From a virus (Duplodnaviria > Caudoviricetes), in the IMG/VR virus record IMGVR_UViG_3300035703_002708: a stretch of DNA of 64,000 bases. The stretch is one strand, 5' to 3'. Position 1 is the first letter of the stretch. Each line of letters opens with the position of its first letter. This document shows positions 5,763 to 58,742 of the stretch, piece by piece. The translations under genes were made by a program, and so were the position numbers. The notes below the pieces were generated by a model. The model was not told where the DNA came from. It did not search any database and saw only the letters and a list, made by a program, of their open reading frames with translations.

Positions 5763-7256
5763 TTATTTTTTATCAACTATTTGAAACTTGATTTGTCTCT
5801 TGTAAGTACTCATCTCGCCGTTGATAATTAGTCTTAAATCTACAAAATATTCGTTAGGTATTTTATCCCTTGTATCAAATATAAAATAGTATTCATTTGG
5901 TGTTTTGTTGACTTGAGTCCAGTCTTGAACTTGTACTTCTGTTTGACCCTCCTTAACATAAACCCTATAGTACGCTTTGATTTTATTAAGAGGTTGATTA
6001 GATGTATATTCTTTTTTGATGATAACACCAACTTTTCTGACATCGGTATTCAATATCTTTTCATCCTGTCTGATACCATAATAATCAAATCCATAAACTG
6101 AAGGTTCACTTGATAACGTACCAATAGAAAGTGCGGATGAATAAGGTCGTACTATCAACTCATTTTCTACATCAGGTAATTCAACACCGTTTAAAGATAT
6201 ATTACTCCACACATCAGTAAATGTACAAGGTGTTTTATAACCTAAAAGTGCTGGTATTGTAACTTCATAAACTCCTTGAGTTTTTCTACATGTAGTAAGT
6301 GCGGTCAAACCTTCTATGGGTTCACCCGTACTATCATATATTGATACTGTTGGATTGGAGTCTAAATTTATTGGACTTCCATCTTCATACAAATACAAAT
6401 ATAACTTATTTGCTCTTCCCAACGAAAATAAATCTCTGTCATCTTGAATTAGGTCGTCATAATTTGTTTGTAAATATGGTTCGTAAAAAGTTTGTGTATG
6501 ACGAGTGAAAAATCCTACAGAATAATAAGATGTTAATCCAGTTAATAATTCTATACTTGGTTTGAACGCTATACCCCAACCAGTAACTCCTGTTATTGTA
6601 CCATTTAATATTCCATTTATTTCATTTGTCATATCAAATGAAATGTTTTCATTACCGAATTCAAAATGTTGTTCTGCAATAATTGTAAGAGCCGAGTAAT
6701 TTAAACCTGTAATTCCTGTCAAAGAATTTTCATTATTATATATACCAGGCGTAGTCCAATCTTCAGTTATCATTCTTTTGAACCAATTTGACGGTTCAGT
6801 AGAATAATTTTCTCTGCCGAATATTGATTCGGTATCATTTATCTGAATACCCAAATCATAGACAGATGCTAACCCCTCATCCCATGTTTGTGAGGTTCCT
6901 GTATCTCCCGATGTCAAAGGTATTCTAAATAAAATCAAATCAAAACCACTACCTCTTGTTATGTCACCACCAAATCTCGTCGACTTCAACAAATCAGGAG
7001 ATGAAAAAACAGTATTTGTCATTATAAGAGTGTGAGTCATAGAAGATGTACATCCCGTTTGAATTATTCCATTAGAAATCTTCTGTTGTAATAATGATAA
7101 ATCAATATCGAATATGAAACGTGAATATACAGGTGTTGGATTTTCAGGATTGATGTTACCAAAATATAATTGTGTCACAGGAGCCTTTCCCGTATTTGTA
7201 TAGACATTAGATAATATCGTATTATTTCTACTGAAATATGAATTATTTATAGACAT
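5763..7256 (-). CDS. hypothetical protein, probable structural (497 aa, beta-rich)
   Basis: Long ORF rich in TGxT motifs like the fibre genes; adjacent to the spike gene and preceded by TATTTAT. Confidence 0.7.
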   Translation of the reverse strand: MSINNSYFSRNNTILSNVYTNTGKAPVTQLYFGNINPENPTPVYSRFIFDIDLSLLQQKISNGIIQTGCTSSMTHTLIMTNTVFSSPDLLKSTRFGGDITRGSGFDLILFRIPLTSGDTGTSQTWDEGLASVYDLGIQINDTESIFGRENYSTEPSNWFKRMITEDWTTPGIYNNENSLTGITGLNYSALTIIAEQHFEFGNENISFDMTNEINGILNGTITGVTGWGIAFKPSIELLTGLTSYYSVGFFTRHTQTFYEPYLQTNYDDLIQDDRDLFSLGRANKLYLYLYEDGSPINLDSNPTVSIYDSTGEPIEGLTALTTCRKTQGVYEVTIPALLGYKTPCTFTDVWSNISLNGVELPDVENELIVRPYSSALSIGTLSSEPSVYGFDYYGIRQDEKILNTDVRKVGVIIKKEYTSNQPLNKIKAYYRVYVKEGQTEVQVQDWTQVNKTPNEYYFIFDTRDKIPNEYFVDLRLIINGEMSTYKRQIKFQIVDKK

Positions 7257-7270
7257 TTTAAGGTTTTTCT

Positions 7271-7277
7271 ATAAATA
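7271..7277 (-). promoter_or_regulatory. TATTTAT putative late-promoter motif
   Basis: 14 nt before minus-strand ATG 7256. Confidence 0.55.
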
Positions 7278-11334: not shown

Positions 11335-12078
11335 TTACCGAACCATATTTTGAATCAGTTCGAAATATACCTTTTTGAACTTTTTCATACTAGCCCTTAT
11401 CTCTTTTGTTGACAAGTTGGTCATATCTCGTAAGGATAGTAATATAATATTTTTATTAAATTTGTTATTATCGGTACTTATGAAGATAGTATCATAGTTT
11501 ATAAAAACTTCATAAAGAGATTCTCCCAATTTCCTTTCGTTTTCAGATAAATCGTTGTCTTGTAGTATTTCTACTAAGTTTTCTAAAAATTTATCTATTA
11601 TTTGTTCACTAGATAAAGAGTCATCTTCCATATAGTAAATCAAATCTTCTCTGTCCGTATTTTCTAAATCGCTAGAAATATCTTCGTACGATATTTTCCT
11701 ATTCATGTCTTTTTGGTCTTTTATAATTTGACCCATTAAATAGTTTTTACATATGGTACCGAAATATGAATAAGCCTTCTTTTCTTTAGAAGGCTTAAAC
11801 TTTTCTATCTTAGTCATCAGAAATGAATGGGTATCAGCATGAATCTCCTCGAAATCCATGTCCTTTCTGTACAACTTATATCGTCTTATAATAGACGATA
11901 TCATTTTATCCAGCGGTTTTCTAAGATTTTGATTGTAGATTTTGTTTCTTTCCTCAAATGTGTTTGCGGATAAAAATAATCTTACAGCAAATTCTTCTTT
12001 TTCGTCGAAATAGTTGTCGGATTTTGGTTTTCTACCTTTCTTTTTTGAATCATCAATGGTTTGTCCACTTAATGTCAT
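11335..12078 (-). CDS. RNA polymerase sigma-factor-like protein (sigma70 region 2; phage late sigma candidate)
   Basis: Region-2-like KIEKFKPSKEKKAYSYFGTICKNYL; C-terminal HTH-like MTNLSTKEIRASMKKFK. ATG 12078 overlaps the upstream TGA. Confidence 0.65.
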   Translation of the reverse strand: MTLSGQTIDDSKKKGRKPKSDNYFDEKEEFAVRLFLSANTFEERNKIYNQNLRKPLDKMISSIIRRYKLYRKDMDFEEIHADTHSFLMTKIEKFKPSKEKKAYSYFGTICKNYLMGQIIKDQKDMNRKISYEDISSDLENTDREDLIYYMEDDSLSSEQIIDKFLENLVEILQDNDLSENERKLGESLYEVFINYDTIFISTDNNKFNKNIILLSLRDMTNLSTKEIRASMKKFKKVYFELIQNMVR

Positions 12079-12884
12079 CAAACGGTTTGCGGTTCATATT
12101 TTATCTGTCTGTCAATACTGAAAAAATATTCTTTTTTTGCAGACTCAATCCAAAATTTGATTTCATCAGGAACCATAACATCTGAACCATTTTTGTAATT
12201 CCAAAAAATTGAACCTTCTCGTAGATTTACGTGCTTGTATCCAATTTTAGGAATCGTCATAATTTTGACTGAATTATGTGTCATTCTTAACATAAATTCA
12301 TAGACAAATGTCAATTTTATTGATGGTTTAAATTTACCGTATTGTTCAAATACTGATTTTTTTATCACCATACCAGACGACTGGAAGTTTTGGTAATTTT
12401 GCAAAGTTTCATTAGTTAGAATACCCATATCAGGTGAGAAGTTTGCGGCAAATGTTGCTTCATTAGTAAATCCCGCAAACACACCTTTATCGTCAATATC
12501 TACAACAATTGGTAGAAATGCTTCAACATCTTTATATGATTTAACATATAGGTTTACATTTTTAAACCAAATTGACGAGTATTCATCATCGAATTCAAAA
12601 AATGAAACCCATTCTGAAGTTGAGTTATCAACACCATAATTAATTTGTGAACAAAAATTAGGCTCGTCCTTCCAAACTAATTTTTTAACCGTAAGGTCAC
12701 CAAAGTCATATGAGTCAAGAGCACTTGTAAGTGTATCTTCATCAGTATGTACAATGATTAGTTCGTTAAATGGAATTTTTTGAGTTTTCAGAGACGTAAT
12801 TGCCTTATCAAAAAGTTCATCAAAGTCTTTAACCTTAGCAGACTTTATAGGTAATATTACAGATAAATTAAGTTTTTCGCTCAT
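12078..12884 (-). CDS. glycosyltransferase, GT-A fold (GT2-like)
   Basis: LSVILPI, IIVHT, WVSFFEFDD (DxD-like); start placed at ATG 12884. Confidence 0.75.
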   Translation of the reverse strand: MSEKLNLSVILPIKSAKVKDFDELFDKAITSLKTQKIPFNELIIVHTDEDTLTSALDSYDFGDLTVKKLVWKDEPNFCSQINYGVDNSTSEWVSFFEFDDEYSSIWFKNVNLYVKSYKDVEAFLPIVVDIDDKGVFAGFTNEATFAANFSPDMGILTNETLQNYQNFQSSGMVIKKSVFEQYGKFKPSIKLTFVYEFMLRMTHNSVKIMTIPKIGYKHVNLREGSIFWNYKNGSDVMVPDEIKFWIESAKKEYFFSIDRQIKYEPQTV

Positions 12885-12885
12885 A

Positions 12886-13947
12886 TTATTCAATAGTTTG
12901 TAATTTGTTTAGTTGTTCTTGGAATGGTTCCAATCTTGTTTCGATGTATCTTGTAAATAAATCAATTACCTTGGATTCGAACTCATCGACTTTTGTATAT
13001 TTTTCAGCGGTTTTCTCGATGTTTTCATAAAGAGACTCATTGATATTATCTTCTAACCAATTGTGTAAGAAGTCAGATACGAAATCAACAATTTGGTTTT
13101 GTTCTCTAATCCAAACACCATTTTCTTCATTCATCCATTCAGGAAACAAATTTGGTATTTTACCAATGACTGGTACACCAACTTTCATAGATTCTAATGG
13201 GAATGTCCCAAATCCACTTGTTGAGTCAATCCAAACCGATAAAAAACAATCTTTAAGTGCGTTTGCAAATTCTTTTTGTGATAGTCCTCTCATATCTCTA
13301 AAAGTAACCCAACGATACTGAGGGTATTTTAAATAGAAAGTTTTAATCAGGGTCATTGTGTCTCTTTGGTCTCTTGTATGAATCGCAATAATTGGTTTTG
13401 GGGGTAATTCCTGTTTTTGGAAAACATTAGAAATCACAGGTGTTAAAATATCAAAAGAAGTACCTTTCATTACTGAACTTACGTATTGTTTTTGTTCCTC
13501 AGATGTGGTAATACATTTTGTAAACCCATATTGCGCCCATGTTTGACCAGGCTGTAGTGTTTCAACTATGTGGTCGTAAGCTTGACATAATACAATTTTA
13601 GCACAAGGAAGGTTTGTTAATTGCGGCATCACAAATCCATAAAGTTCTGGCACGATGATAAAATCTTCAGGGGATACCTCCAAATTCTGACCTTCAATCG
13701 CTCTATGAGGTAGTTCATCCATGTATTCTTGACCTAACCAATTCGCTACTCCTGTATAATCAGGTTTTTCATGTAGAATAATCGAATTAAATCCTGCTCG
13801 CTTCAGTGTCATGGCCATTTGGTAGGTATGTGCAATACCTGCCTTAGCATTACCTTTGGTGTCTTGTACCATAAAATAAATCCTTACAGATTTGTTTTTA
13901 AGGTTCTCTACTGATTTCTCTAAATTTTTAATTTGTTCGGGTGTCAT
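12886..13947 (-). CDS. glycosyltransferase, GT-B fold (GT4-like)
   Basis: C-terminal SGFGTFPLESMKVGVPVIG corresponds to the E-x7-E GT4 motif region. Confidence 0.7.
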   Translation of the reverse strand: MTPEQIKNLEKSVENLKNKSVRIYFMVQDTKGNAKAGIAHTYQMAMTLKRAGFNSIILHEKPDYTGVANWLGQEYMDELPHRAIEGQNLEVSPEDFIIVPELYGFVMPQLTNLPCAKIVLCQAYDHIVETLQPGQTWAQYGFTKCITTSEEQKQYVSSVMKGTSFDILTPVISNVFQKQELPPKPIIAIHTRDQRDTMTLIKTFYLKYPQYRWVTFRDMRGLSQKEFANALKDCFLSVWIDSTSGFGTFPLESMKVGVPVIGKIPNLFPEWMNEENGVWIREQNQIVDFVSDFLHNWLEDNINESLYENIEKTAEKYTKVDEFESKVIDLFTRYIETRLEPFQEQLNKLQTIE

Positions 13948-13948
13948 A

Positions 13949-14212
13949 TTAATATTTGTTGATTAATTTTTTATTCAATAGTGAGTTAAAAGCAATTTTG
14001 AATGGAATGGTCAATCCTCCGCCACTCTTTAATCCTAATGTTTCGTCTATTTCTTCATCTTCAGTCATAATAACTTCCATCATCATTTTTACAACTTCGT
14101 ATTTTACAACATTAATGTGCATTTCACTACCACCACTTGCCGAAGGGATATTTATATATTTTTCAATTTCGTCGATATCAACGTAATAAGTGTCATTAAA
14201 GATTTTGAACAT
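13949..14212 (-). CDS. hypothetical protein (87 aa)
   Basis: Operon-packed ATG ORF. Confidence 0.7.
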   Translation of the reverse strand: MFKIFNDTYYVDIDEIEKYINIPSASGGSEMHINVVKYEVVKMMMEVIMTEDEEIDETLGLKSGGGLTIPFKIAFNSLLNKKLINKY

Positions 14213-14877
14213 TATGCGTATTGTTTTATAATGTTTTCCAACATAGTTTCAAATTCCTTTATTGAAGAAATTGTGTATGGTGAAGAAACGTGTTTATTGT
14301 ATTTTGTTTCGTATTTAACCACGATTTTGTTCTGTGGATGATTTAATAATAAGTCAGGATTTGCCGTAAGTAAAACATCTACTTCATCCCACATAGATTT
14401 AATTGTTTGGTTAGAATAAAATTTTACCTTTTCTAATAAACAACCAAATTTCGATATGAAAAAAAGTGATGCGGGTTTTGACTTTCCAATCTCATCTGAC
14501 ACAATCAACAAATCATGTTCATCTCTTAATTTTATATATAAATCATTAAGGTCATTAAATGATGTCATTTCGGCTGATGGGGCGTGACCAAAAATTTGCA
14601 TCGGAAATTCTTGGTACATAAAATTATAAAGTTCATCGTTGTTTGGAAATGCAAAATGTTTTGACAAGTCTATTGAATCGACTTCGGACAAGACCTCGTA
14701 TTTAAATGGAGTTTCTACTTTAGATAAAATCTCTTTATATTCCTCGTTATTATCAATCGCTTCGTAGGTCTTGAGTTTTTCGTCGTATTCCTCGTCGATT
14801 AGATATCTCTCGTAAGTTTGTTTAAACTTCTCGATGGTGTCTCTTAAAACACCATTTAATTCAATACCGATTTTCAT
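14212..14877 (-). CDS. HAD-superfamily 5'(3')-deoxyribonucleotidase-like protein with altered motif I
   Basis: MKIGIELNGVLRDT occupies the IDxDGVL.D position. Confidence 0.55.
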   Translation of the reverse strand: MKIGIELNGVLRDTIEKFKQTYERYLIDEEYDEKLKTYEAIDNNEEYKEILSKVETPFKYEVLSEVDSIDLSKHFAFPNNDELYNFMYQEFPMQIFGHAPSAEMTSFNDLNDLYIKLRDEHDLLIVSDEIGKSKPASLFFISKFGCLLEKVKFYSNQTIKSMWDEVDVLLTANPDLLLNHPQNKIVVKYETKYNKHVSSPYTISSIKEFETMLENIIKQYA

Positions 14878-17516: not shown

Positions 17517-17520
17517 ATTT

Positions 17521-18213: not shown

Positions 18214-18220
18214 AGTTTCA

Positions 18221-18931: not shown

Positions 18932-18934
18932 ATA

Positions 18935-20151: not shown

Positions 20152-20161
20152 TTTTAAAATT

Positions 20162-20938: not shown

Positions 20939-20942
20939 TTTT

Positions 20943-22546: not shown

Positions 22547-22547
22547 T

Positions 22548-23120: not shown

Positions 23121-23124
23121 AATT

Positions 23125-24459: not shown

Positions 24460-24462
24460 ATC

Positions 24463-29554: not shown

Positions 29555-29569
29555 ATAAAATAGATTTGT

Positions 29570-29602
29570 CAAAAATATAGAGATGTTATATTAGAATATC
29601 AA
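29570..29602 (-). promoter_or_regulatory. Bacteroidota-type promoter heading the glycan operon
   Basis: Minus strand TATTTTTG (29577-29570) with TTG 22 nt upstream, located right after a terminator. Confidence 0.55.
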
Positions 29603-47500: not shown

Positions 47501-50500
47501 TCAACTATAACTCCGTCTATTTCTCCAACATCAACTAAAACTCCAACAATAACACCAACCAAAACTCAAACTCCTACTATAACTCCAACTATAACAAAAA
47601 CACCAACTCAAATTGCCGCTTGTCCTGATTGTGATATAACAGGTAACACTTATTTAGATGGAGTAACTTTAACTCCTACGGTTACTAGTACAGTGACTCC
47701 ATCAATCACGCCTACATCAAGTATAACACCTTCAATTTCTCCAACAAAAACTCAAACACCAACAATAACACCAACTACATCGGTATCTCCATCTTTAACA
47801 CCAACATTATCGGTTTCACCGTCATTGACACCTAATGTAACCGTGACACCAACAATTACTCAAACACAAATTCAATTTTGTCCCGATTGTGATATCAGTG
47901 GAAATACATATTTGGACGGAGTCACATTGACTCCAACTGTAACGAGCACAATCACACCATCTTTTACACCAACACAAAGCCAAACTCCAACTGTAACACC
48001 TACAGTTACTACCACAAAAACACCAACTCAAACACAAACACCAACTATAACTCCAACTATAACGCAAACTCCAACTATAACTCCAACTATAACTCAAACT
48101 CAAGTATCATCGTGTCCTGACTGCGATATAACAGGAAACACGTATCTGGATGGTGTAACATTAACCCCAACAGTTACAAGTTCATTAACCCCTTCAATAA
48201 CACCAACATCCTCGGTAACACCAACCAATACTCAAACACCAACAATTACGCCTACTATAACACCGACACAAACTATTACGCCTACTATAACACCGACAAC
48301 GTCAATATCACCATCTTTAACGCCAACTAATACACAAACACCAACAATAACCAAAACTCAAATACAGTTCTGTCCTGATTGTGACATAAGTGGTAATACT
48401 TATTTGGATGGTGTAACTCTGACACCAACAGTCACTTCGACTATTACACCAACAAAAACCCCAACACCAACTAGACCCCAATTAACTTTCAGCGGATGTG
48501 ATGATGTTTTTTCAGGGCAATCATTTAACTTTAGTGGTTTTGGAATGGATTTCACCACGATTTATGATTTAAACCCTTCACTAATATATTCTTTCTCCGC
48601 AAATGGTATTGTGGGATGTTTTAGAATTGTCGAAGGGTTCACTCAAACGTACTATTACCTGACTTCAAACACTGGACAAACTTTTTCAACATGTGGAATA
48701 TGTTCCGAAAATAACCCCATTGAGTCTCAATACCCTGTCATACAACTTTGTCAGTGTAGTGGTTTTACAAATTGTATTTGGTCTAACGGAGATTTTACCT
48801 TCAATACGACAATATTATTTGGGGTGTCTAATCAAATTGGTTGTTGGAAAATGATTTCTACCGCAACAACAACCACTACGGCGGGATATGATGTTCCGAC
48901 AGGACAAACCTACGATAACTGTGTTGAATGTGAAAGTGGTTCGATAAACAGAGTCTTCAGTTCGTGTTGTGGTAATTATGTATTTAATATCGCCGAACCA
49001 CTACAAGGTATTATAGATAATTTATTTTTCGAAAAAATATACGAAATCAATACAGAAGAATTTTCAGGGTGTGCTAGAGTTGTAAGCGGGTTTTCAGAAA
49101 ATAATTATAATTTGACTTCATTAGATACTAATGAATATTTTGATACATGTTTGGATTGTTTAACCGCAACAACAGGTTCTAACATTTGTCCGACATTAAC
49201 ACCAACACCGACAGAAACACCAACACAAACCCCAACTACAACAATAACACCGACCGAGACTGTAACACCAACAATAACACCGACCGAGACTGTAACGCCA
49301 ACACAAACTCCTACCATTACACCGACTAATACTCAAACACCTACAATAACTCAAACAGAAACACCTACTCAGACTCCCACACCTACAGAAACAAAAACAC
49401 CAACTCCAACTCAAACGCCAACAATAACACCAACAATCACTCAAACACCGACTCAAACACCGACTCAAACACCAACACCTACTATAACACCAACGAAAGA
49501 ACCTGATTACGAAGTTTGGGAATTTAGGGATTGTTGTACAGAAACCGATTCGAAATATTACAGAGTATACAATTATCCAAGTGTGGTTTTGGACTCAGTC
49601 GCCCTTTCGGGTGTTTCAGCGCTTTACGATTATGGACTCACATACGTTGATTATAATAATTCCATATATGTGATTGCATCTTTTAACTTAAACGTTGTGG
49701 ATACAAGTACAAACACTCTGACACAAGTTATAGACTTCGGGAATGCGGTTGTGTCACCAACCTATTCTCCTGAAAACCAAAAATTATATGTTAGTGAATA
49801 CGCAATAGATAGATTAGTAGTTGTTGACGTTACCACTAATACTACGGCTTCAACAATCAATGTCGGTACTTACCCTGCGGTGTTATACTACAATTCAACT
49901 TATGAAAAGTTATACACACTAAATTTAAATTCAAATGACGTAACTGTTGTTGATACTACATCAGACACTGTACTCATAAACGTTAGTGTTAGCGGTTCAC
50001 CTATTAGTTATGTTTATAACCAAGACAACGAGTACTTATATATCTTCCACACAAATAGTAATTACGTTTCTGTTATTGACACTTTTGACGACAGTATTGT
50101 AACAACCATTAATTTGGGAGCTCAATGTGACTCTGGTATATATGACCCTACAAATCAACGCATTTATTGTTGGGGTTGGGGTGATGGTAATTACGTTAAA
50201 GTTATCAATACAAATACAAACACATTTTCAAACACAATAACGACAACATTACTCCCTTACAATAGACAATCACAAATAGTCGGAAATTACTTGTATATTC
50301 CTTGTAATTTAGGGATTGAAGTAATTGAACTTTCAAGTCAAACGTCATATACCTCAATAGTTGTTCCAGTGGGTTCGGTCGAACAAATAATCCTAAACCC
50401 AACCAACGGATATTTGTATGTAACCTTTACAAACTTAGGAGTTGTTATTATAGACCCATCGTCAAACGAAATAATCCAAACAAACACTAGTTTTTTAACC

Positions 50501-53500
50501 TCAGGATATTACATACCACAAACAGGTTATATATATTATAACGGTACGAATCCAAGTCCACAATTACAAGTTGTGGGTGAAATTTTCAGGTCTTGGAATG
50601 TAGGAGATGTTGTGAACGACTTATCAAACGGACAATGTTATTCTGCGTACCAATTGGTTTCACCATCGACACCATACTCACAAAATGTTTCAATTACATC
50701 TTACACCGATTGCTGGTCTTGTGTCCAAGCGATAGGTTGTCCTTTCATTTTCGAGGATTGTCAATCAGGAACAACACAATTTACAATTAATGTGATACCA
50801 ACAGGTCAAACACCTCAGTACGGAACAAATTACTCTTATGAATTAGTTTCAGGGGACACAACAGTTACCGCATATGGTGGAGACTCAGGAAATGAGGCGT
50901 GTTTGTTTTTCACAGAAATACCAACTTTGGGAATAGTTTCTATATATCCAGTATCACCAATCCAAAACCCCCTAATTGGAGATTGTATAACTTGTGAAAC
51001 ATCCTACCCAAGTTACCCAACACGAGCCAAATTTACAGATTGTTGCACTCAAACTGAAGAAATATATTTTAATATAAATTACCCAAGTATTCAGTGGATG
51101 ATAGGAGATGTTGTGTTATACACCATACCAAACAGTGATACAAAAAAATGTTACGAATTAATTGAATTTGATACTTTTAATACGTTCCCTGCTGGTGTAT
51201 GGAATTTCAATGACCCCGACTATAAGGGCTCACCATACAACTGTGAAAAATGTTTTGCCTTTAACAAATGTGAATGTCAAGAAGTTTTCACACCATATGA
51301 CTTTTTAAGTTGTTGTGACAATTCTACAATACTTGTTATGGGTATTTTACCTGAAAACTTTGTTTTAGGAAATGTGGTTATGTATGAAGGAGTACCATAC
51401 TCGATGATTGGTCCTTCAGTAAATCCGATTGATGGTGGTTGTTTTGCAGTTTTTGATTACGTTGACTGTACTGCGGCAAATAATGAGGAGGTTAATCCTT
51501 GCGGATTTAGTTTAGGTCAGTACGAATATTGTTGTAACACTTCTGAGATTATTGAAGTGTGGGAACCAGGTTATACAAACTCAAGTTATACAAACTTTTT
51601 ATATAATAATAAATGTTGGAATAGACGTGGTAATGGAGCAGGAACAACAGGCGAAACTATTTTTTGGACAGGATACACTTCGTGTGAAGAGTGTTATCCA
51701 AATTCAATAGGATATGTTTTAAGTTCTTGTACAATAGACGGTTTGACAATCACAGCACAAACTTCTGATTACAGTACATTGAATGTTAATAGTTTTTACA
51801 ATTTCACATCAGGAATTACTGATACTTTTTATTACGATTCAACATTTGTTTATGGTACAGGTTTTGGTTATACAGGTTCCTCTGTTGGTCAAGTAAATGA
51901 TATAATTTATTATCCACCAAAAGATGACCTATTCTTCGGTGGTATTTTCAACTCATATGATGGCACATCTGTAAATAACTATGCAAGAATCGACAATCTT
52001 GGAAATTTTGTTGGACTATTTGATGCAACTGGTTTAAATACTGGAGATACTTCCTTTATAAGTCAAATCGGAATTCAATCCAATGAAAAACTTATTGTTG
52101 TTGGTAATTTTACATCCTACAGTAGTAATAATGTTGGAAGAATAGTTAGGACTAATTCTGAGGGTGCTTATGACAACACATTTTCAGGTGACACTGGTTT
52201 TAACAATTTAGTTATCGATATTGCAATAAACAATTCAGACCAAATATATTGTGCGGGGGTCTTTTCAACGTATAGAAGTTTTTCGGCCATAGGATTAGCG
52301 AGATTAGGTCCTGACGGTATTTTTGACACAGGATTTACTTCTCATTTCACTTCCGCCACAAACCTAAAAATCAGAGAAATAGAAGTCCAAACTGATAATA
52401 AATTGATAGTTGTGGGGGACATTCCTAATTTATATAGTGGAATTACTTTCGGACCAATTAGAAGATTGAATTCTGATGGTAGTATAGATTTTTCTTTCTC
52501 TGGAACTGTTAGTGGCTTTGGTGGTTCTATTGCTTCGGTAGAAATACAAAATGATGGAAAAATAGTGTGTGGTGGTAATTTTACGACGGCAAACGCACAA
52601 ACCTTGTCAGGTATGGTTAGGTTTACAAGTGGTGGCACTGTTGATAATACCTTTAATGCTCAATCATGGATTTCGACCTATAACATAGAATCCATTTCAA
52701 AAATTAAACTTTTAGAAGACGGTAAATTTTTGGTATATGGTGGGGACTTAAGTCTCAATCGGTATGTGTTTTATATCGGAACTAATGGAGAGTTATTACA
52801 AACAATACAAATCAATGGAGGTGGTGTCTCTGATATAGAAAATTTATTACCTGGCAGTGGAAGATACGTCTTAGGTGGTAACTTTACAGGAGTAACGATA
52901 AATAGTGTTTCATACAGCGCCAATAGTGTATTTGCAATTGAACGTGTGGTTGAAAATTGTTTTAAAGTCATTGATACCGTAACTGGTTGTACTGCATCTG
53001 AGGCAACAATAGTAGTTGCGGGTACTGAATATGCTTCATGTGCAAGTTGTTTGATACCTCCTACAATGACACCAACACCAACTCAGACACCGACAATAAC
53101 TCCAACTAAAACACCAAGTCCAACACCAACACAGACTAAAACTCCTACGCAAACCCCAACTCAGACTCCAACTCAGACCCCTACGCAGACACAAACACCT
53201 ACCGAAACGCCGACACAAACGCCAACACAGACCCCTACTCAAACTCCTACTCAAACTCCTACTCAAACACAGACACCAACACAAACACAGACACCAACAC
53301 CGAGTAGATTCCCTGACTGTGTTGATTGTGAATTATCAGGACTTTCATATTATTCTGGTTACAGTGATTGTACATGTTATTCAATAACTATGACCACTCT
53401 TGCCGCGGTATTTGCGTACAACTGTTACGGAGTGTATACAGTAATTCTAACATCAGGAACATATTGTTTAAGAGAAATAGTTGACTCAAATGGAAATACA

Positions 53501-54139
53501 GTGATATCTCAAGGGTCATGTGAATCAGGTGTATGTGCTTCACCTACACCAACGCCAACACAGACACCAACGCCAACAATGACACCTAGTAAAACTCCTC
53601 CAATTACACCAACACCAACAAAGTTATGTTGTGCACCAACAATAACTAATGTAGACTTCGGAACCAATACAATTAGAAACTTCGATTGGATGGATGTGTT
53701 TTACACACAAGGATGTGGGTTAGCGGACGGATATATAGTGACACTACAAACAGCAAACGCTAGTTACATTTACAATGTACCCACACCAAATCCTGAAGGT
53801 TATTTCAGAGTTAATTACGTGGCATCAAGAGGTGGAATAATCTCAATTACAAAAGTCTGCGATAACGGAGCACTTTTGGTTTCTAACCAATATTATGTCG
53901 GTAAACCAGGGTCATCATTCCTACTCGTAAGATGGACAAGGTGCCCAAGTTTCGGAACTTCTATACCTTTCTATACATACGTTTACTCTAATGTACAACA
54001 GTCCCCATCTCCTAGTTCGATATACACACCATCAGGTAACCCACTTAATGGTGTTTACACCAGTGCCACTACGTTAAACGAAGGACCTATTGATAGATAC
54101 CTAAATGGTACATACTGGCAATCAGGTTCGTGCCCATAA
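41567..54139 (+). CDS. giant (4190 aa) putative virion fibre/adhesin: about 14 Cys-rich modules, two Delta-60-type and one YVTN-type beta-propellers, long Thr/Pro/Ser stalk
   Basis: QNDNKILVGGNF...IIRLNQDGSIDNTF repeats (about 42850-43920 and 51840-52940); TINVGTYP..LYYNS..EKLYTLN.NSNDVTVVDT repeats (49583-50593); TPT tracts. Confidence 0.8.
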   Translation: MCELILTGLTYSCGPYTIDLCDCQGGNCIKIIVTPDVGNLTGTITYPDGSSETYENGIIDINIPEGYSEDDCIIFTVFNSDGEPVVDKPEPPNFSQTPTPGLTPTPTKTINYVEPPRPGGGGPGIVLDFPSQTPTLTPTPSPATPTPTVSLTNTPTVTVTTTLTQTMTVTPTVTPTPLTPNLGFSSCCDNSFFSLKEETQFISTLDPTKTYYIQTNEFVGCVTIVSQRPTDFFEFISISSGYVDCVDCLSATTGNNFCPTQTPTPTITITPTRPIKAFKDCCENIYIGLTEESELLYSLDPNKSYYLVTDGYSGCTTIVNEQPTLYYNFVSILEYNDCDLCRIDKVGVICPSPTPTVTSTPTVTPTVTPTITSTPTITPTITPTFVEKFCYELSACTTNLVYSGCSPLSLNLDKTYQILLDIDEGSRNTKLQTGTGFNGSVFTVEYQNDNKILVGGNFSQYNGLSTSNEIIRLNQDGSIDNTFNYAGPSYVYINDIVEQNDGKILVGLGQVFGNSGNILQRLNSDGSLDGTFTPLTCPNGGAISKILILPDSTIVIGGTFNNPNSTFFHKLIRLFPDGSVDPFFGTGGFLPNLGVESVYDVDVLSDGTLICVGSFSEYKFISANKIVPILPNGTINVGFSYGSGFDDDVYAVKVLNDDSILVGGKFTQYNGTSSSCVIKLLSDGSIDTSFVVGSGFSGGVVYDITVDTSGDYIFVGDFTDYKNQTANGIIKLDSNGDIVTTFVTGIGLDNTGYKIDVNSDGSEIIVGGIFSSYNNCVNNNLVSIINSVTSVTDCFTIINSGSCSCCQNTIVSASTEYINCNDCLVLTPTPTPTPTITPTNTKTQTITPTISVTKTVTRTLNPTRTPTHTPTPTVTPTNLIPIFSSCCGTINIQFTDPNVALGLTIGEFYFVEADSYSACTLLTLGYPNLILDTATGVTTVTDCVTCITDYLPSGICPTPTQTPTSTLTPTPTILPIVLSSCCGNFLIDVSDQVELLETLSQYTETTFLFTSDDGFSACTSLARAVPNTLFNFTSFRVFIDCDACNTFLNGTVVCPTQTPTPTETKTSTPTLTPTITPTITVTNTKTPTITPTITITSSITPTETPTSTVTTTQTPTNTQTPTVTKTPLASPQETRTPTPTPTITPTETPTQTVTPTITNTQTVTTTETPTQTPTITVTKTETPTNTPTVTTTITNTATQTLTVTNTITPTETVTPTVSPTNTPSISATLTPGVTKTPTRTETPTQTPTNTITPTITQTPTQTKTPTQTQTPTKTETPTVTATKTPTKTQTPTITPTVTPTISVTPTITQTQIQFCPDCDITGNTYLDGVTLTPTVTSTITPTITQTSTVTPTVTLTNSVTPTQTQTNTQTPTITPTTTLTPTITPTITQTPTITQTQIQFCPDCDISGNTYLDGVTLTPTVTGTITPTITPTNTQTPSKTPTKTPTQTKTPTKTQTPTITPTKTPTQTKTPTKTPTQTKTPTKTPTPTITPTKTETPTVTPTKTPTKSVTPTITPTQTQTPTVTPTITQTQIQFCPDCDITGNTYLDGVTLTPTVTSTVTPSISPTATITPTITTTKTVTPTSTPTTSVSPSLTPTTSVSPSLTPTNTQTPTITQTQIQFCPDCDISGNTYLDGVTLTPTVTSTVTPSITPTNTKTPTITPTKTKTPTITPTKTVTNSQTPTKTVTNTPTQTPTLTRTPNEACPDCDITGNTYLDGVTLTPTVTSTITPSISPTSTITPSISPTSTITPTVTPTTSISPSLTPTTSISPSLTPTQTVTPTITQTQISTCPDCDISGNTYLDGVTLTPTVTSTITPSITPTTSVTPTITQTTTITPTITPTKTQTPTITPTITKTPTQIASCPDCDITGNTYLDGVTLTPTVTSTITPSISPTPTVTPSISPTSSVTPTVTPTTSISPSLTPTTSISPSLTPTNTQTPTITKTQISTCPDCDISGNTYLDGVTLTPTVTSTVTPSITLTSTITPSISPTSTKTPTITPTKTQTPTITPTITKTPTQIAACPDCDITGNTYLDGVTLTPTVTSTVTPSITPTSSITPSISPTKTQTPTITPTTSVSPSLTPTLSVSPSLTPNVTVTPTITQTQIQFCPDCDISGNTYLDGVTLTPTVTSTITPSFTPTQSQTPTVTPTVTTTKTPTQTQTPTITPTITQTPTITPTITQTQVSSCPDCDITGNTYLDGVTLTPTVTSSLTPSITPTSSVTPTNTQTPTITPTITPTQTITPTITPTTSISPSLTPTNTQTPTITKTQIQFCPDCDISGNTYLDGVTLTPTVTSTITPTKTPTPTRPQLTFSGCDDVFSGQSFNFSGFGMDFTTIYDLNPSLIYSFSANGIVGCFRIVEGFTQTYYYLTSNTGQTFSTCGICSENNPIESQYPVIQLCQCSGFTNCIWSNGDFTFNTTILFGVSNQIGCWKMISTATTTTTAGYDVPTGQTYDNCVECESGSINRVFSSCCGNYVFNIAEPLQGIIDNLFFEKIYEINTEEFSGCARVVSGFSENNYNLTSLDTNEYFDTCLDCLTATTGSNICPTLTPTPTETPTQTPTTTITPTETVTPTITPTETVTPTQTPTITPTNTQTPTITQTETPTQTPTPTETKTPTPTQTPTITPTITQTPTQTPTQTPTPTITPTKEPDYEVWEFRDCCTETDSKYYRVYNYPSVVLDSVALSGVSALYDYGLTYVDYNNSIYVIASFNLNVVDTSTNTLTQVIDFGNAVVSPTYSPENQKLYVSEYAIDRLVVVDVTTNTTASTINVGTYPAVLYYNSTYEKLYTLNLNSNDVTVVDTTSDTVLINVSVSGSPISYVYNQDNEYLYIFHTNSNYVSVIDTFDDSIVTTINLGAQCDSGIYDPTNQRIYCWGWGDGNYVKVINTNTNTFSNTITTTLLPYNRQSQIVGNYLYIPCNLGIEVIELSSQTSYTSIVVPVGSVEQIILNPTNGYLYVTFTNLGVVIIDPSSNEIIQTNTSFLTSGYYIPQTGYIYYNGTNPSPQLQVVGEIFRSWNVGDVVNDLSNGQCYSAYQLVSPSTPYSQNVSITSYTDCWSCVQAIGCPFIFEDCQSGTTQFTINVIPTGQTPQYGTNYSYELVSGDTTVTAYGGDSGNEACLFFTEIPTLGIVSIYPVSPIQNPLIGDCITCETSYPSYPTRAKFTDCCTQTEEIYFNINYPSIQWMIGDVVLYTIPNSDTKKCYELIEFDTFNTFPAGVWNFNDPDYKGSPYNCEKCFAFNKCECQEVFTPYDFLSCCDNSTILVMGILPENFVLGNVVMYEGVPYSMIGPSVNPIDGGCFAVFDYVDCTAANNEEVNPCGFSLGQYEYCCNTSEIIEVWEPGYTNSSYTNFLYNNKCWNRRGNGAGTTGETIFWTGYTSCEECYPNSIGYVLSSCTIDGLTITAQTSDYSTLNVNSFYNFTSGITDTFYYDSTFVYGTGFGYTGSSVGQVNDIIYYPPKDDLFFGGIFNSYDGTSVNNYARIDNLGNFVGLFDATGLNTGDTSFISQIGIQSNEKLIVVGNFTSYSSNNVGRIVRTNSEGAYDNTFSGDTGFNNLVIDIAINNSDQIYCAGVFSTYRSFSAIGLARLGPDGIFDTGFTSHFTSATNLKIREIEVQTDNKLIVVGDIPNLYSGITFGPIRRLNSDGSIDFSFSGTVSGFGGSIASVEIQNDGKIVCGGNFTTANAQTLSGMVRFTSGGTVDNTFNAQSWISTYNIESISKIKLLEDGKFLVYGGDLSLNRYVFYIGTNGELLQTIQINGGGVSDIENLLPGSGRYVLGGNFTGVTINSVSYSANSVFAIERVVENCFKVIDTVTGCTASEATIVVAGTEYASCASCLIPPTMTPTPTQTPTITPTKTPSPTPTQTKTPTQTPTQTPTQTPTQTQTPTETPTQTPTQTPTQTPTQTPTQTQTPTQTQTPTPSRFPDCVDCELSGLSYYSGYSDCTCYSITMTTLAAVFAYNCYGVYTVILTSGTYCLREIVDSNGNTVISQGSCESGVCASPTPTPTQTPTPTMTPSKTPPITPTPTKLCCAPTITNVDFGTNTIRNFDWMDVFYTQGCGLADGYIVTLQTANASYIYNVPTPNPEGYFRVNYVASRGGIISITKVCDNGALLVSNQYYVGKPGSSFLLVRWTRCPSFGTSIPFYTYVYSNVQQSPSPSSIYTPSGNPLNGVYTSATTLNEGPIDRYLNGTYWQSGSCP
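45509..48430 (+). repeat. 12 in-frame copies of CPDCDI(T/S)GNTYLDGVTLTPTVT separated by Thr/Pro/Ser linkers
   Basis: First Cys codons at 45509, 45767, 46169, 46427, 46673, 46931, 47147, 47405, 47621, 47879, 48113 and 48371. Confidence 0.95.
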
Positions 54140-54184: not shown

Positions 54185-56545
54185 ATGAACGCTTATATTT
54201 GCATTTCAAGTACTGGTAATACTCCTCTTACAGGATTTACCATTTTTCAAAACGTAGATAACTATCTTACACCGTTGGTTAGTAATGTACCATTGAGTAA
54301 TTTCTTATTACCAAATTGTCCATACGTAGTAACAAATGTTGACCCAAATACAACAATTATAAGATTATATGATTATGGTGCCGGTTGTTGTGTTGATATT
54401 CCATATACCGATGGATTTAACATATGTGACATATGTGTCCCACTAGGTTTCAGTGCCAATAGTTCGCCAAATGTCGGTTCGATATCTGTTGGACAACTAT
54501 CTGGTGGATGTGACCCGTCAATAGGTCAGTATTATTTGGAATGGTATGGTCCTGGTACAGGAAGTACTCAATTAGTATTCACTAGTGGATTCGGTGGACC
54601 AATACCGAATTTTAATTCATACCAAATGGAACATCCGCTTACAGGTACAAGTCAAGTTCCTCTTATTAGTGGGGCTTATAGACCTATAATTAGATATATC
54701 GATACTAATGGTATTATTTATTCTTGGGCTTTTGGTGCTTACGGGGATTGTTTTCAAAACAATCCTTTCATAGTTTTACCATACACGGCAACTAATGGTT
54801 CTGGAGTAGATTACGAACACGAATTAGTTTTCAGTGGAGACCCAAGACCAGGATTTACTCAATCAGGTACTATAGAGTTGTCAGGAACAACTAACTATGT
54901 ACCTTTCAGGTTCGATGGAAACCTAAGTAAAAAAATATTGAGAATCGAGTTTTCAGGAAGTGCTTATCCTGCACCACTACAATTAGAAAATGTATTACTA
55001 GGTTTTATACCTAACACAAACACATTAAATTTTGAAACAACACAATTTGCAAAAGATGGCGGCCCTAACGCCGATTTTTTCACTAGAGTATTATGTTTGA
55101 CAGGTCTAACAAGGAATGCTGGTGACACTCTTACATTTTATATTGATAGTCCCTATACTTCAGCAGAGAATTTTATTACAAATTGGAGTTTTTATTTTGA
55201 CCAATTACCTACCTTTGATTGTACTAGTTGTTTATTGGACACTCCTAAGTACCTTATAAGCGGTGGTTCGTTTAGTGCTTCAAGTGGTACTTGTTCTTCT
55301 ACAACTGTAACCTTTTCAGTGTCAGGATGCTCGTCAACCGTTGACCTCAATAAGGATTTATATAAATATATTTTCAAAAACAGTGGATTTGCATATCCTG
55401 GACCCTATGGGTATAGTGCTAACGCAAATGGTCTAATTCCTGTATCTGTTAATTTGGGTAACGGTATTTCAAAAGAATGTTATGTTGATTTATATTTACC
55501 TGAAAATGTACTTCCTAATGACTGTATTGATATGTCACTTAGCGCCGGTGCACAAGCTCTGGCCAAAATGTATGTTAATATATCAAACACAAGTCCTAAT
55601 ACAAAATTAATTGAATGGTTTTGGACTGATTTTGCAACTAACCCAGTTTCCGCTAATTTGTTCAATTACATCCAACAAAGTTGGACTGATGTGATAACTC
55701 AGTTTACACCTAACGACTATCCAAGTACCGATTATAGATATTATCGAGCTCTTTACTTCCAAGCACCAACAGGTACTGGTGGTTCTACTCAATGTAACGA
55801 TGAGGCCTACATAGGTTGTTTCTTAAATCAAAATACAACCACCGCAACTTTTACTGTGACACCTAGTACAGTACCTAATATCAATATTTATAAAATATCG
55901 ATACAGGGTTCGTTTTTCGCAAATCCACAATTACTTTTGAATTCCTATGGTCCTTGTGATGATGCAAACACTTGTAAATCAATCAATGGTGACCAATATC
56001 AAAACATCGCTAAAAAGGTACAGGATTTTATAAGTGCAACTACAGTTAATATTACTGATACTGGTCTGGTTGGTTTCACACCCAGCCCAATGCCTGGTAA
56101 ACCCATCTCACCAGACTTCTACACCAAAAACCCGTTTCAGGTTTATTATCCCATTTTTATAAACTCACCTGGTAACCCTCAAGGTTCTACCGCAAATACT
56201 AGCAATTTCGCAAGTGTTTACCAATATCAAATGAAGACGTATCCATCATCAGGTGCTTCACCTAATTCACAAACTGTGATTTCTGGTTTGACTGCTGATA
56301 CCTGTAGTTCATTGACAGGTAAGACTTACAATCCTTATAGTGCGGATTCAACTAACTATAGAAGTACTTATCAGAAATATCACTTCTATTATGATATAGT
56401 CGATAATCCAAATGTTACTTTAGGTTATAGTATTTATGCAAATGATATTTTATCAAACGGTCAACCTTCGGGTACTCAAACTTTGATTGCAACAGGTACC
56501 GGCTCAACATTAACAATTATAAATTCTTCCTACTTCACACCATAA
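54185..56545 (+). CDS. Cys-containing beta-rich putative structural protein (paralogue of 56559..58742)
   Basis: Shares STGNT..., CPYV, GCC.DIP, WYGP, HPLTG and FSG..Y..PL..E with the next gene. Confidence 0.75.
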   Translation: MNAYICISSTGNTPLTGFTIFQNVDNYLTPLVSNVPLSNFLLPNCPYVVTNVDPNTTIIRLYDYGAGCCVDIPYTDGFNICDICVPLGFSANSSPNVGSISVGQLSGGCDPSIGQYYLEWYGPGTGSTQLVFTSGFGGPIPNFNSYQMEHPLTGTSQVPLISGAYRPIIRYIDTNGIIYSWAFGAYGDCFQNNPFIVLPYTATNGSGVDYEHELVFSGDPRPGFTQSGTIELSGTTNYVPFRFDGNLSKKILRIEFSGSAYPAPLQLENVLLGFIPNTNTLNFETTQFAKDGGPNADFFTRVLCLTGLTRNAGDTLTFYIDSPYTSAENFITNWSFYFDQLPTFDCTSCLLDTPKYLISGGSFSASSGTCSSTTVTFSVSGCSSTVDLNKDLYKYIFKNSGFAYPGPYGYSANANGLIPVSVNLGNGISKECYVDLYLPENVLPNDCIDMSLSAGAQALAKMYVNISNTSPNTKLIEWFWTDFATNPVSANLFNYIQQSWTDVITQFTPNDYPSTDYRYYRALYFQAPTGTGGSTQCNDEAYIGCFLNQNTTTATFTVTPSTVPNINIYKISIQGSFFANPQLLLNSYGPCDDANTCKSINGDQYQNIAKKVQDFISATTVNITDTGLVGFTPSPMPGKPISPDFYTKNPFQVYYPIFINSPGNPQGSTANTSNFASVYQYQMKTYPSSGASPNSQTVISGLTADTCSSLTGKTYNPYSADSTNYRSTYQKYHFYYDIVDNPNVTLGYSIYANDILSNGQPSGTQTLIATGTGSTLTIINSSYFTP

Positions 56546-56558
56546 AAATTAAAACTTT

Positions 56559-58742
56559 ATGCCATTTTCCATAGATTTATGTCTTACTAATACAGGAAAC
56601 ACGGTATTGGGTCCAACCTTTTTAGTTTTTTCTGATACGAATCCTAACGTACCTTTCACAACAATAAATTTATCAGATATTGTTCAGACTGAATGTCCTT
56701 ATGTTTTGAGTGGTGTGCCTGATAATGCAACATCTATAAGGTTATTAAATTTACCAACAGGGTGTTGTATTGAAATTCCGATAACCGGAAATTTGGATTT
56801 ATGTATAATGTGTGATTTAGGATTCAACGTTTATTCGGCAAATACCGTCAGTGTAATTACCGCAGGTAATTTGACTGGTAGTTGTGACGATAATATTACA
56901 GACTATGTCGTTAATTGGTATGGACCTGATAGTAGTACCAACATTCAGTTCACAAGTGGAAAAGGAAATACTTTTACTTATGATTGGATACATCCGTTAA
57001 CAGGAAACTCATCGGTTTTTGCACCAGCCGGCGTCTATACCCCAAAAATAGAATCCATAATACTAAATGGAGAACTTCTCCAAGAAGATTATGGAGTTTT
57101 ATCAAATTGTTTTTCTGCGGTTACTGTTGAAGCATTCAACTGTTCGAATGGAAATAATACCAATCCACCCTCACTTGCACTTACGGCTTATTCACATGTA
57201 ATTGAGTTTAGTCAACAATCACAAGGAAATGTACCACCAAATTTATCGGCGATATTCGAGTTATCTGCAAACACAAATTTCTTGGCCTTTGCTTTTAAGG
57301 GGGCAAGTGTACCAGATTCACTAAAAATTTCTTTTTCAGGTGCTAGCTACTCTACACCATTAGTTATGGAGTATATCACGGTTGGTGATAACCTGACGAC
57401 ATCAAATCTAAACCCAAATTCATTTCCAAAAAGTGCTGACACCCTATTCTTTTTTTCTAAGGTTCTTAATTTACAAGATACTGTAACGGTATTACCTGGC
57501 GATTATTTGATAATCGAGGTAGAACCAAATCCGACAAATCCAAATACTGAATGGACATTGTATTTAAAATGTTTAGAAACTTTCAATTGTGTCAAATGTA
57601 TAGACACAAACACACCACACAAAATATTACAAAGTTCCATAACAGGTATTACTGGCAGTTGCGGTCAGTTACAAATTCAATTTGTTTTGACGGGATGTTC
57701 AAACAGTCAAAATAATTCAGAGGATGTGTTCAAATACTTTTTGAATGATGGATTAACCCAATCCCCACTTGCAAACAATGGGATAACTGTTGGGTCTCAA
57801 TATACAACATTTAATTTATTTTATAGTGCGCTTACATGTAGTTTTAATCAAGCGCCAGGTTTCCCTTATCAAATTTCATGTTATATCTCAGGTTCCGACA
57901 ATATAAATTTTAGAACTTATAGACCAAACGTTAATACTAGAATTCTTGAATTTAAATTTGAAGGACTTTCGGACTTCAATGCTTACCTTTCCAACTTTTT
58001 AGATGCTATGCAGTATAGTGGTTCGTCAGACCCAACAAACATAACTTACTATAGTAGATTATTTCTAAGTGTACCGGCGCCTAGTGGTGGTACACTTTGT
58101 GGTGACAATACCACACGACTTGATTTTACATTACACCCACCTACGTTAGATTACGCAACAGGAACCACTATTGAATTTCCATATAATTATACTTTTTCAA
58201 TTACGTCAACAACCATATCAAACGGTGCCTCATATAATATTTGTGACCAAAATTGTTTGAGTTTTTTAGATGGTACAGTAAATACGGTAAATGCTAGTGT
58301 TACAGGTTCTAGTCTCGATATAACAGGGACAACGACAGTCTCGTCAAGATACCAATATCCATTTTATAATATTTGGAGATTTACAAGTAGCACAACTAAT
58401 CAAACGTCTACATTTTATAATTTCTCAATAAGGTTTCCGACATATTCAAATGCAACCTATGTGGCGTCAGGAACGCCATTACAAAACATTTCAACAATGT
58501 CCGCCACAACCTGTGATTTTTCATCATCCATGTATCAAGACATCTTTGCCGGGGTTACCGAATGGTATCAATATGTTGGTTCTTATTTGCTGCAAAGAAC
58601 AAATCCGAATAATCCTAATGATTTTAGAATCATGGCTTCGGTTATAACTAATGGCCAACCAAGTTTTTTATATGATGTTTTGGCTTACGGAATTTCAGGA
58701 GGCACCGTTTATGCTTCTAACCCAACCTACATTCAATCTTAG
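56559..58742 (+). CDS. Cys-containing beta-rich putative structural protein (paralogue of 54185..56545)
   Basis: Collinear motifs with the preceding gene over most of its length. Confidence 0.75.
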   Translation: MPFSIDLCLTNTGNTVLGPTFLVFSDTNPNVPFTTINLSDIVQTECPYVLSGVPDNATSIRLLNLPTGCCIEIPITGNLDLCIMCDLGFNVYSANTVSVITAGNLTGSCDDNITDYVVNWYGPDSSTNIQFTSGKGNTFTYDWIHPLTGNSSVFAPAGVYTPKIESIILNGELLQEDYGVLSNCFSAVTVEAFNCSNGNNTNPPSLALTAYSHVIEFSQQSQGNVPPNLSAIFELSANTNFLAFAFKGASVPDSLKISFSGASYSTPLVMEYITVGDNLTTSNLNPNSFPKSADTLFFFSKVLNLQDTVTVLPGDYLIIEVEPNPTNPNTEWTLYLKCLETFNCVKCIDTNTPHKILQSSITGITGSCGQLQIQFVLTGCSNSQNNSEDVFKYFLNDGLTQSPLANNGITVGSQYTTFNLFYSALTCSFNQAPGFPYQISCYISGSDNINFRTYRPNVNTRILEFKFEGLSDFNAYLSNFLDAMQYSGSSDPTNITYYSRLFLSVPAPSGGTLCGDNTTRLDFTLHPPTLDYATGTTIEFPYNYTFSITSTTISNGASYNICDQNCLSFLDGTVNTVNASVTGSSLDITGTTTVSSRYQYPFYNIWRFTSSTTNQTSTFYNFSIRFPTYSNATYVASGTPLQNISTMSATTCDFSSSMYQDIFAGVTEWYQYVGSYLLQRTNPNNPNDFRIMASVITNGQPSFLYDVLAYGISGGTVYASNPTYIQS

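Follow-up and report, generated by a model that had tools for sequence, protein, structure and literature searches.

A Lineage-Specific Ser/Thr-Gly/Ala-x-Thr Motif in Putative Particle Proteins of Uncultured T4-Related Phages: a Candidate O-Glycosylation Signal

What keeps one four-residue pattern recurring dozens of times in large phage proteins of mostly unrelated fold? The question is raised by a 64,000-nucleotide stretch of IMG/VR virus record IMGVR_UViG_3300035703_002708 (Duplodnaviria; Caudoviricetes), called the window here. Six of its proteins, virion-module or fiber-like by context and fold and named after the first coordinate of their genes (5763, 32276, 37291, 41567, 54185, and 56559; Table 1), carry many copies of the tetrapeptide [ST][GA].T, that is, Ser or Thr at position 0, Gly or Ala at +1, any residue (x) at +2, and Thr at +3. 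An original prediction, made by eye from the sequence, took the pattern for a recognition signal of a phage glycosyltransferase (GT) or other modifier. We report a short linear motif, hydrophobic-[S/T]-[G/A]-x(not Pro)-T, that is specific to one lineage and under selection at the protein level, as seen in its excess, its specificity, its restriction to one class of proteins and one lineage, and the turnover of its sites, and we weigh what may read it.

Excess and specificity of the tetrapeptide

Expected counts were taken from 1000 mono-residue shuffles per protein; stretches with at least 60% Thr plus Pro (linkers and stalks) and a 12-copy repeat were masked. After masking, the six proteins retain 103 copies of [ST][GA].T where 16.3 are expected (z = 20.6, about 6.3-fold), and shuffling within 40-residue blocks gives the same result (103 versus 16.2). 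Patterns of identical composition are flat, whether reversed (T.[GA][ST], 12 versus 15.9, 0.76-fold) or permuted ([ST].[GA]T, 19 versus 15.7, 1.2-fold; [GA][ST].T, 14 versus 16.0, 0.9-fold), so the enrichment described by the original prediction is borne out. Unmasked, against mono-residue shuffles, the excess is 2- to 8-fold in each of the six, and the spacing between sites has no period. An unbiased scan of all three-residue patterns at six spacings ranked TG.T first (46 versus 6.3; p = 1.7e-24), SG.T third, and SA.T fourth; no short signal in these proteins is thus stronger than the pattern found by eye. In the window's other 41 open reading frames (ORFs; 11,470 residues), enzymes of the glycan operons included, 6 sites were counted against 6.6 expected. 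The tetrapeptide had been called rare in those enzymes; it shows no excess there, but it is at expectation rather than depleted.

That the excess is an artefact, whether it came from composition, from repeats, from paralogy, or from a signal in the DNA, is a near-negligible explanation. A very high Thr content (up to 24%) and the 12-copy repeat in one of the proteins speak for such an artefact, but masking the linkers and the repeat raises the excess to its 6.3-fold value, block shuffles leave it intact, and the permuted patterns of the same composition stay flat. Composition, linkers, and repeats were thereby ruled out as the cause; the Thr/Pro stalks raise Thr content yet hold no Gly. Codon choice at the three fixed motif positions matches the general usage of the proteins, so selection acts on amino acids and not on DNA, and a DNA-level cause was excluded. 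Paralogy was rejected as the main source, since only one pair among the six is paralogous: by BLASTP, 54185 is an N-terminal paralog of 56559 (34% identity over ~360 residues). The description of the folds as unrelated is mostly right, with the reservation that, beside this pair, 41567 contains two DUF5122 propellers related by BLASTP (residues ~417 to 825 and 3430 to 3830), and 32276 and 37291 have a phrog_15511 stretch in common.

Only the full three-part combination is in excess. [ST]G.T is enriched 6.8-fold, while [^ST]G.T (0.78-fold) and [ST][GA].[^T] (1.0-fold) are not. At position 0, Ser serves as well as Thr, and neither Asn (N[GA].T, 0.8-fold) nor Asp (D[GA].T, 0.93-fold) stands in for them. 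At +1, Ser or Asn gives 1.35-fold, Pro 1.1-fold, and Asp 0.4-fold; at +3, Thr gives 6.3-fold against 2.0-fold for Ser and 1.0-fold for Asn, and Asn-ending variants are close to expectation (T[GA].N, 9 versus 6.4; [ST][GA].N, 13 versus 12.8). Pro is never found at x (0 versus 4.8 expected), a position that otherwise follows background composition, bulky hydrophobic and charged residues included. The N-linked sequon N-x-(S/T), with x not Pro, shows no excess in the six proteins (97 versus 105.7).

The repeat in 41567 is a conserved island separated by variable spacers (Table 1). Its 12 copies are identical in amino acids except for a strict alternation of Thr and Ser at motif position 0, and all 22 of its codons differ synonymously between copies. 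This combination points to purifying selection on the island, with position 0 taking exactly Ser or Thr; the observation that the repeat core fits the motif, as TGNT or SGNT, holds in all 12 copies. At 22 residues the island is below normal domain size; with its CxxC pair, it may serve repeatedly as a site of docking or of modification.

Distribution in relatives and outgroups

The window has a G+C content of ~32% and is probably part of a large uncultured phage, to judge by an endolysin-like gene, the glycan island with its phoH and dut genes, and the neighboring genes in relatives; its 727-residue protein (56559) is on record from a 316,559-base contig. Relatives were represented by 80 IMG/VR loci around homologs of 5763 and by a 282-kb, 96%-complete relative with 291 ORFs (G002). 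Neighboring genes in the 80 loci encode a T4-type major capsid protein (PF07068, 1.8e-73), whose gene the 5763-family gene adjoins, and a portal (PF07230, 1.9e-66). The T4-type particle genes (gp23-type capsid, gp20-type portal, and contractile sheath, phrog_23 at 4.8e-53) were located in related loci and in G002, outside this window, in the same module as the motif-rich genes. A type IX sorting domain in the gene next to 5763 (Table 1) suggests a Bacteroidota-type host. Large phages of freshwater Bacteroidota whose core includes four glycosyltransferase orthogroups have been described as a comparable lineage (PMC12619734). When compared with the phage collection, 54185, 5763, and a G002 fiber gave 0 matches by tblastn, and the capsid protein matched only LR756508 (44% identity) and distant T4-like phages.

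The 5763 family is unannotated and very common in metagenomes, with at least 2948 homologs and, in IMG/VR, at least 581 loci, mostly ~60% identical. Its members average 4.3 sites against 0.7 expected (range, 1 to 9), and the 103 homologs of 56559 average 10.9 against 2.2 (range, 2 to 25); reversed-pattern counts are at expectation in both families. Low-count members have 1 or 2 sites, equal to expectation, in the same folds that elsewhere reach 9 or 25. Conserved sites in the family alignments swap Ser with Thr and Gly with Ala. Over the 1254 ORFs of the 80 loci, 1267 sites were counted against 435 expected, with excesses of 5.9-fold in the 5763 family, 3.9-fold in the capsid protein, and 5.6-fold in a 200-residue family, and with 0.1- to 0.3-fold values in several conserved nonstructural families, including both glycosyltransferases discussed below. 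The family of the small protein at 11335 to 12081, present in 55 related loci, holds 50 sites against 3.9. The capsid family has two nearly fixed sites and ~36 more in indel-rich variable stretches; among capsid representatives the excess drops from 2.3-fold to ~1.3-fold with distance. The capsid protein of the clade is ~610 residues long, versus 521 in T4, and its expanded, indel-rich N-terminal half holds most of the variable sites (e.g., L037:12457-14286).

G002 shows the same concentration across a whole genome. Fifteen of its 291 ORFs hold 224 of its 276 sites (47.7 expected for those 15); in the 276 others, 52 sites were counted with 50.3 expected. Among the enriched ORFs are the tail sheath, homologs of 5763 and 56559, SprB- and PKD-like proteins, and a run of fiber genes. 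Within the sheath, residues 126 to 500 carry 12 sites (2.0 expected) and the conserved core, residues 801 to 1193, carries 0 (0.7 expected), a distribution consistent with an outward-facing location. The DNA polymerase has 1 site against 0.59, and no site was counted in DnaB, in ribonucleotide reductase, or in a gp6-like baseplate wedge protein. Two of the fiber genes (L098:10529-15162, equal to 270529-275162) have 20 and 31 sites in 531 and 966 residues, with dense runs such as SGTT..SGFT..SAST.SATT..SGFTANT..SATT.SATTYYNLP.

Outside the lineage the excess fades. T4 shows none, either in its virion genes (19 versus 17.9) or in its long fibers (11 versus 8.9). The same is true of LR756508, a 484-kb huge phage of 539 ORFs whose capsid protein is the closest deposited relative of the clade capsid (110 versus 90.7, with no enriched ORF), and a cyanophage structural region reaches a mild 1.6-fold. 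With nothing comparable in T4, LR756508, or the distant capsids, the motif is not a general property of these folds.

Exposure was approached through two proxies, secondary structure and domain position, the former taken from predicted models. The 729 motif occurrences in 65 aligned members of the 56559 family map to 81 distinct positions on the 727-residue model; 41% of these are predicted to be all-coil, 22% all-strand, and the rest mixed, as in the fold as a whole. On this model the sites share no one structural context, and their positions turn over heavily. A generic Ser/Thr or Asx capping turn was rejected on the same distribution over predicted coil, strand, and helix and on the values for Asn and Asp at position 0.

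Candidate readers, comparable systems, and rival explanations

More than 10 glycan enzymes are encoded in the window, none with a membrane-span-like segment, and all six motif-rich proteins lack a signal peptide (maximum 12-residue hydropathy of ≤1.2, versus 2.48 in the secreted-type protein at 4421 to 5698). Soluble enzymes and proteins without export signals fit a cytoplasmic system. The candidate readers of the motif are two overlapping genes for soluble glycosyltransferases, of GT2 and GT4-like type. The GT2 gene is found in 54 of the 80 related loci and, at 65 to 80% identity, in 4 of 4 long relatives; the GT4-like gene is found in the same 4 of 4 at 61 to 74% identity, and the two adjoin the virion module in 53 to 54 of the 80 loci. 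Neither was found in LR756508 by the searches that were positive in 4 of 4 long relatives, and PF00535 matches there number 0, versus 7 in G002. This absence from a motif-free outgroup is a lead, not proof.

Our preferred explanation, which the evidence makes plausible without making it probable, is that the motif directs O-glycosylation in the cytoplasm and that soluble glycosyltransferases of the phage read it; that an enzyme is the reader, that this enzyme is a glycosyltransferase, and which residue it modifies are all inferred. A specific reader in this lineage is suggested by the three-way specificity, with a hydroxyl residue at 0, a small residue at +1, and no Pro at x, and by the confinement of the motif to one lineage, to ~5% of the proteome, and to outward-facing parts with turnover of sites. 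Glycosylation in the cytoplasm is favored because soluble glycosyltransferases dominate the candidate enzymes. On this explanation, selection would keep the motif, throughout a large clade of freshwater phages related to T4 and with Bacteroidota-type hosts, on those particle proteins that face outward. Its carriers would be the capsid protein, the tail sheath in its protruding part, Ig-like and beta-sandwich proteins, fibers, and giant Thr/Pro-stalked proteins. A soluble phage glycosyltransferase, for which the conserved GT2/GT4-like pair would be the best candidate, would recognize the hydroxyl residue, the small residue after it, and the Thr three residues on, and would put the first sugar on Ser or Thr in the cytoplasm; further sugars would be added by the variable enzymes of the island. 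A fuller picture, to be taken with a little more caution, is of a widespread lineage of giant freshwater phages with its own cytoplasmic O-glycosylation at the sequon [S/T]-[G/A]-x(not Pro)-T, coating capsid, sheath, fibers, and giant stalked proteins with a glycan that relatives vary by exchanging its outer part. The Thr/Pro stalks may be a second, separate modification target.

Mycobacteriophage virions are reportedly O-glycosylated by phage-encoded glycosyltransferases, a finding said to be that of Freeman et al. in Cell Host Microbe in 2023. The likeness to the present case is of a tailed phage with its own glycosyltransferases near structural genes, here the GT2/GT4-like pair at 12078 to 13947 and GT60/GT10-like enzymes after the fiber-like genes; on that model the particle proteins would be sugar-coated in the cytoplasm by the phage itself. 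The mycobacteriophage glycans are reported at the C termini of the subunits of capsid and tail tube, and the summary of that work mentions no tetrapeptide signal (PMC12619734). In our proteins, by contrast, the candidate sites are internal, number 7 to 47 per protein, and follow a defined motif, and the glycan that was reported there is predicted here.

Other systems resemble parts of this arrangement. The major capsid protein Vp54 of chlorovirus PBCV-1, a eukaryotic virus, is N-glycosylated on Asn at atypical sequons, approximately (A/G)-N-T-x-T. It offers virus-encoded, soluble cytoplasmic machinery and a noncanonical short sequon combining a small residue with Thr-x-Thr, but Asn is outside the motif here and N.[ST] is without excess. 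The Aah and TibC heptosyltransferases, which glycosylate the AIDA-I and TibA autotransporters, are soluble cytoplasmic enzymes that place many sugars on Ser and Thr scattered along an all-beta surface protein; they differ in belonging to another enzyme family, in not being known to follow a strict tetrapeptide, and in having a single substrate. General O-glycosylation in Bacteroidota, the presumed host phylum, also uses a three-residue signal with a hydroxyl residue, D-(S/T)-(A/I/L/V/M/T), and acts on exported proteins. The six proteins lack signal peptides, and their globular parts hold the Bacteroidota sequon no more often than expected (26 versus 26.9); the motif is distinct from it, as had been proposed. 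The acceptor of proteoglycan xylosyltransferase, Ser-Gly(-x-Gly), likewise begins with a hydroxyl and then a small residue, but the enzyme is of the eukaryotic secretory pathway, and its site has an acidic context instead of Thr at +3, with Ser only. The motif is also unlike mucin-type Thr/Pro acceptors, as in GT60-type initiation: the 103 sites were counted outside Thr/Pro-rich stretches, and Pro is absent from x.

Several observations weigh against a signal read by an enzyme. The link to the glycosyltransferases is a lead only, because it comes from a single whole-genome outgroup plus T4. Motif counts in the 5763 family and in the capsid do not covary across the same loci (rho = -0.09), so the clade offers no on/off pattern by which the motif could be linked with a particular gene. 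The portal, though not an exposed protein, is ~3-fold enriched in the 80 loci. In the 56559 model 5 of 12 sites lie inside predicted beta-strands, and some may therefore be poorly accessible. In 41567 the second propeller region (residues 3361 to 3806) has 11 sites, at differing blade positions, and the first propeller has 0. A hydrophobic residue at -1 lifts the excess to 9.4-fold, the G002 fibers carry hydrophobic-TGxT-hydrophobic units at quasi-regular intervals like a structural repeat, and at some conserved sites +1 alternates between Gly and Asn or Asp, as a turn residue would. One of the fixed capsid sites, T-G-T-T in the clade, is N-G-S-T in T4, which makes that site partly ancestral structure.

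The hydrophobic preference, the in-strand sites, and the fiber units lend some weight to the main rival, a lineage-specific structural element by which the clade would preferentially start or kink beta-strands in the modules (beta-sandwich, fiber, and insertion) that have spread among its particle proteins, and which would be kept for folding or packing with no enzyme involved. We consider it rather unlikely, if not lightly dismissed. All motif-rich proteins are all-beta, several sites in the 5763 and 56559 models lie 2 to 5 residues ahead of a predicted strand or at its start, and the alternation of Gly with Asn or Asp and the T4 capsid site are what such an element would leave behind. A general micro-motif, however, should appear in T4, in LR756508, and in the low-count family members, and it does not; on the model, the sites occupy 81 positions in one fold and favor no secondary-structure class. 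Position 0 shows no enrichment of Asn or Asp, which commonly replace Ser and Thr in capping turns; the free swap of Ala for Gly misfits a turn dependent on a left-handed backbone conformation; residues at x follow the background, bulky hydrophobic and charged ones included; and the paralogous propellers differ by 11 to 0. The original prediction of a recognition signal for a phage modifier stands in part. The enrichment is directional, protein-level, and specific to a class and a lineage, in a glycosyltransferase-rich genome, but only a single outgroup contrast ties the motif to an enzyme, and a structural role has still to be reckoned with.

Two further explanations keep the motif at the surface of the particle. 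It might contact a ligand or dock another phage protein (e.g., a decoration or cement protein bound along capsid, sheath, and stalks), or form a Thr-based surface for water, ice, or polysaccharide, as could be expected of sites on outward-facing parts and of a 22-residue island conserved 12 times within a disordered stalk like a repeated binding site. The nearest described look-alike comes from the presumed host phylum: the ice-binding motif T-A/G-X-T/N of Flavobacterium frigoris FfIBP (DUF3494 fold), with a near-identical order of Thr, Ala or Gly, any residue, and Thr (PMC5334608). In FfIBP the motifs line up along a single face of a beta-helix, and Asn may end them; here Pfam searches found no DUF3494 or other ice-binding family in the six proteins, the 56559 model predicts beta-sandwiches, Asn is not enriched at the end, Ser equals Thr at the first position, and spacing without a period implies no aligned arrays. 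Ten to 47 copies per protein, scattered in varied contexts, are unusual for protein docking, and we give this explanation little credence. There is a slim chance that the motif directs covalent chemistry other than glycosylation, for example cross-linking, acylation, phosphorylation of Ser/Thr, or methylation of a neighboring residue. The sequence evidence for a sequon applies equally to it, a hydroxyl at position 0 suits any O-linked chemistry, and FkbM-type methyltransferases are present in the island, but Pfam revealed no kinase, acyltransferase, or cross-linking enzyme among the enzyme genes of the window, and glycosyltransferases are by far the commonest candidates, two of them conserved beside the virion module.

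If O-glycosylation at the motif is real, tailed phages would have in it their first described system of glycosylation directed by a sequon. An attachment signal would supply a sequence rule predicting which proteins and residues are sugar-coated in an abundant uncultured phage lineage, would give the large, swappable glycan-gene islands of that lineage a target, and would make either the tetrapeptide or the 22-residue island a short, portable tag. Capsid, sheath, and fibers coated with glycan would matter for how hosts are recognized, for the stability of particles in water, and for escape from recognition by hosts or grazers. If the motif is structural, it would still be a lineage-wide, protein-class-specific signature that separates outward-facing particle proteins and helps to annotate unknown phage genes.

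Features of the window

Table 1. Coordinates of features in the window; site counts are [ST][GA].T occurrences versus expected
Feature	Coordinates	Strand	Evidence and remarks
NAGPA-type phosphodiester glycosidase domain	1444-2157	-	PF09992, 7.2e-9
Peptidoglycan-binding endolysin-like gene	2235-3401		
Type IX secretion system (T9SS) protein	4421-5698	-	C-terminal type IX secretion sorting domain PF18962, 2e-11; clear signal peptide; 0 sites, unlike its neighbors
497-residue tandem beta-sandwich (Ig/FN3-like) protein	5763..7256	-	7 sites versus 0.9
248-residue conserved protein, adjoins GT2 gene	11335..12081	-	2 sites versus 0.06
Soluble GT2-family glycosyltransferase	12078..12893	-	PF00535, 1.6e-5; no transmembrane-like segment
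Soluble GT-B (GT4-like) glycosyltransferase, overlaps GT2 gene	12886..13947	-	PF00534, 3.4e-4, below curated cutoff; no transmembrane-like segment
Rest of glycan island: epimerases/dehydratases, GT6, GT2, GT77-like, TOD1/MUCI70-like, FkbM methyltransferases	14212..32222	-	Pfam; motif at background
phoH	14874-15602		Interrupts glycan island
dUTPase (dut)	27005-31		Interrupts glycan island
1662-residue protein, globular N- and C-terminal parts around long Thr/Pro stalk	32276..37264	+	25 sites versus 9.6, all outside stalk
1308-residue Cys- and Thr-rich protein	37291..41217	+	20 sites versus 4.6
4190-residue giant protein: two DUF5122 beta-propellers, Thr/Pro stalks, 12-copy repeat	41567..54139	+	PF17164, 2.8e-59; 41 sites versus 22.8, 12 of them repeat copies
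22-residue island CPDCDI[S/T]GNTYLDGVTLTPTVT x12, inside 41567-54139 gene	45509..48454	+	Variable Thr/Pro spacers; motif at center
786-residue multi-beta-sandwich protein	54185..56545	+	11 sites versus 2.3
727-residue multidomain beta-sandwich protein	56559..58742	+	12 sites versus 2.1
Second enzyme group, directly after motif-rich genes: GT60-type GlcNAc transferase (58813-60063), GT10-like, two unassigned proteins	58813..63312	+	PF11397, 6.4e-67; PF00852, 7.6e-8; 0 sites

The AF2 model of 56559 is of high confidence (pLDDT, 89; pTM, 0.80), and its PDB matches show a generic beta-sandwich only. That of 5763 is moderate (pLDDT, 62), with Foldseek matches to Ig-like proteins that show only tandem Ig-like domains; we would guess at a head-decoration protein of the Hoc kind. 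Atlas look-alikes of 32276 are viral ConA-like/Laminin_G_3 proteins, a lead only. The large proteins at 32276 to 58742 contain 2.5 to 3.4% Cys, though they are without a signal peptide, and Cys patterns are the next most enriched after the motif in their globular parts (D-C-x-x-C, 11 versus 0.36; F-x-x-C-C, 8 versus 0.37). The GT6, GT77-like, and TOD1/MUCI70-like enzymes of the glycan island are unusual for phages. Near the left end of the window, the NAGPA-type glycosidase domain lies close to the endolysin-like gene.

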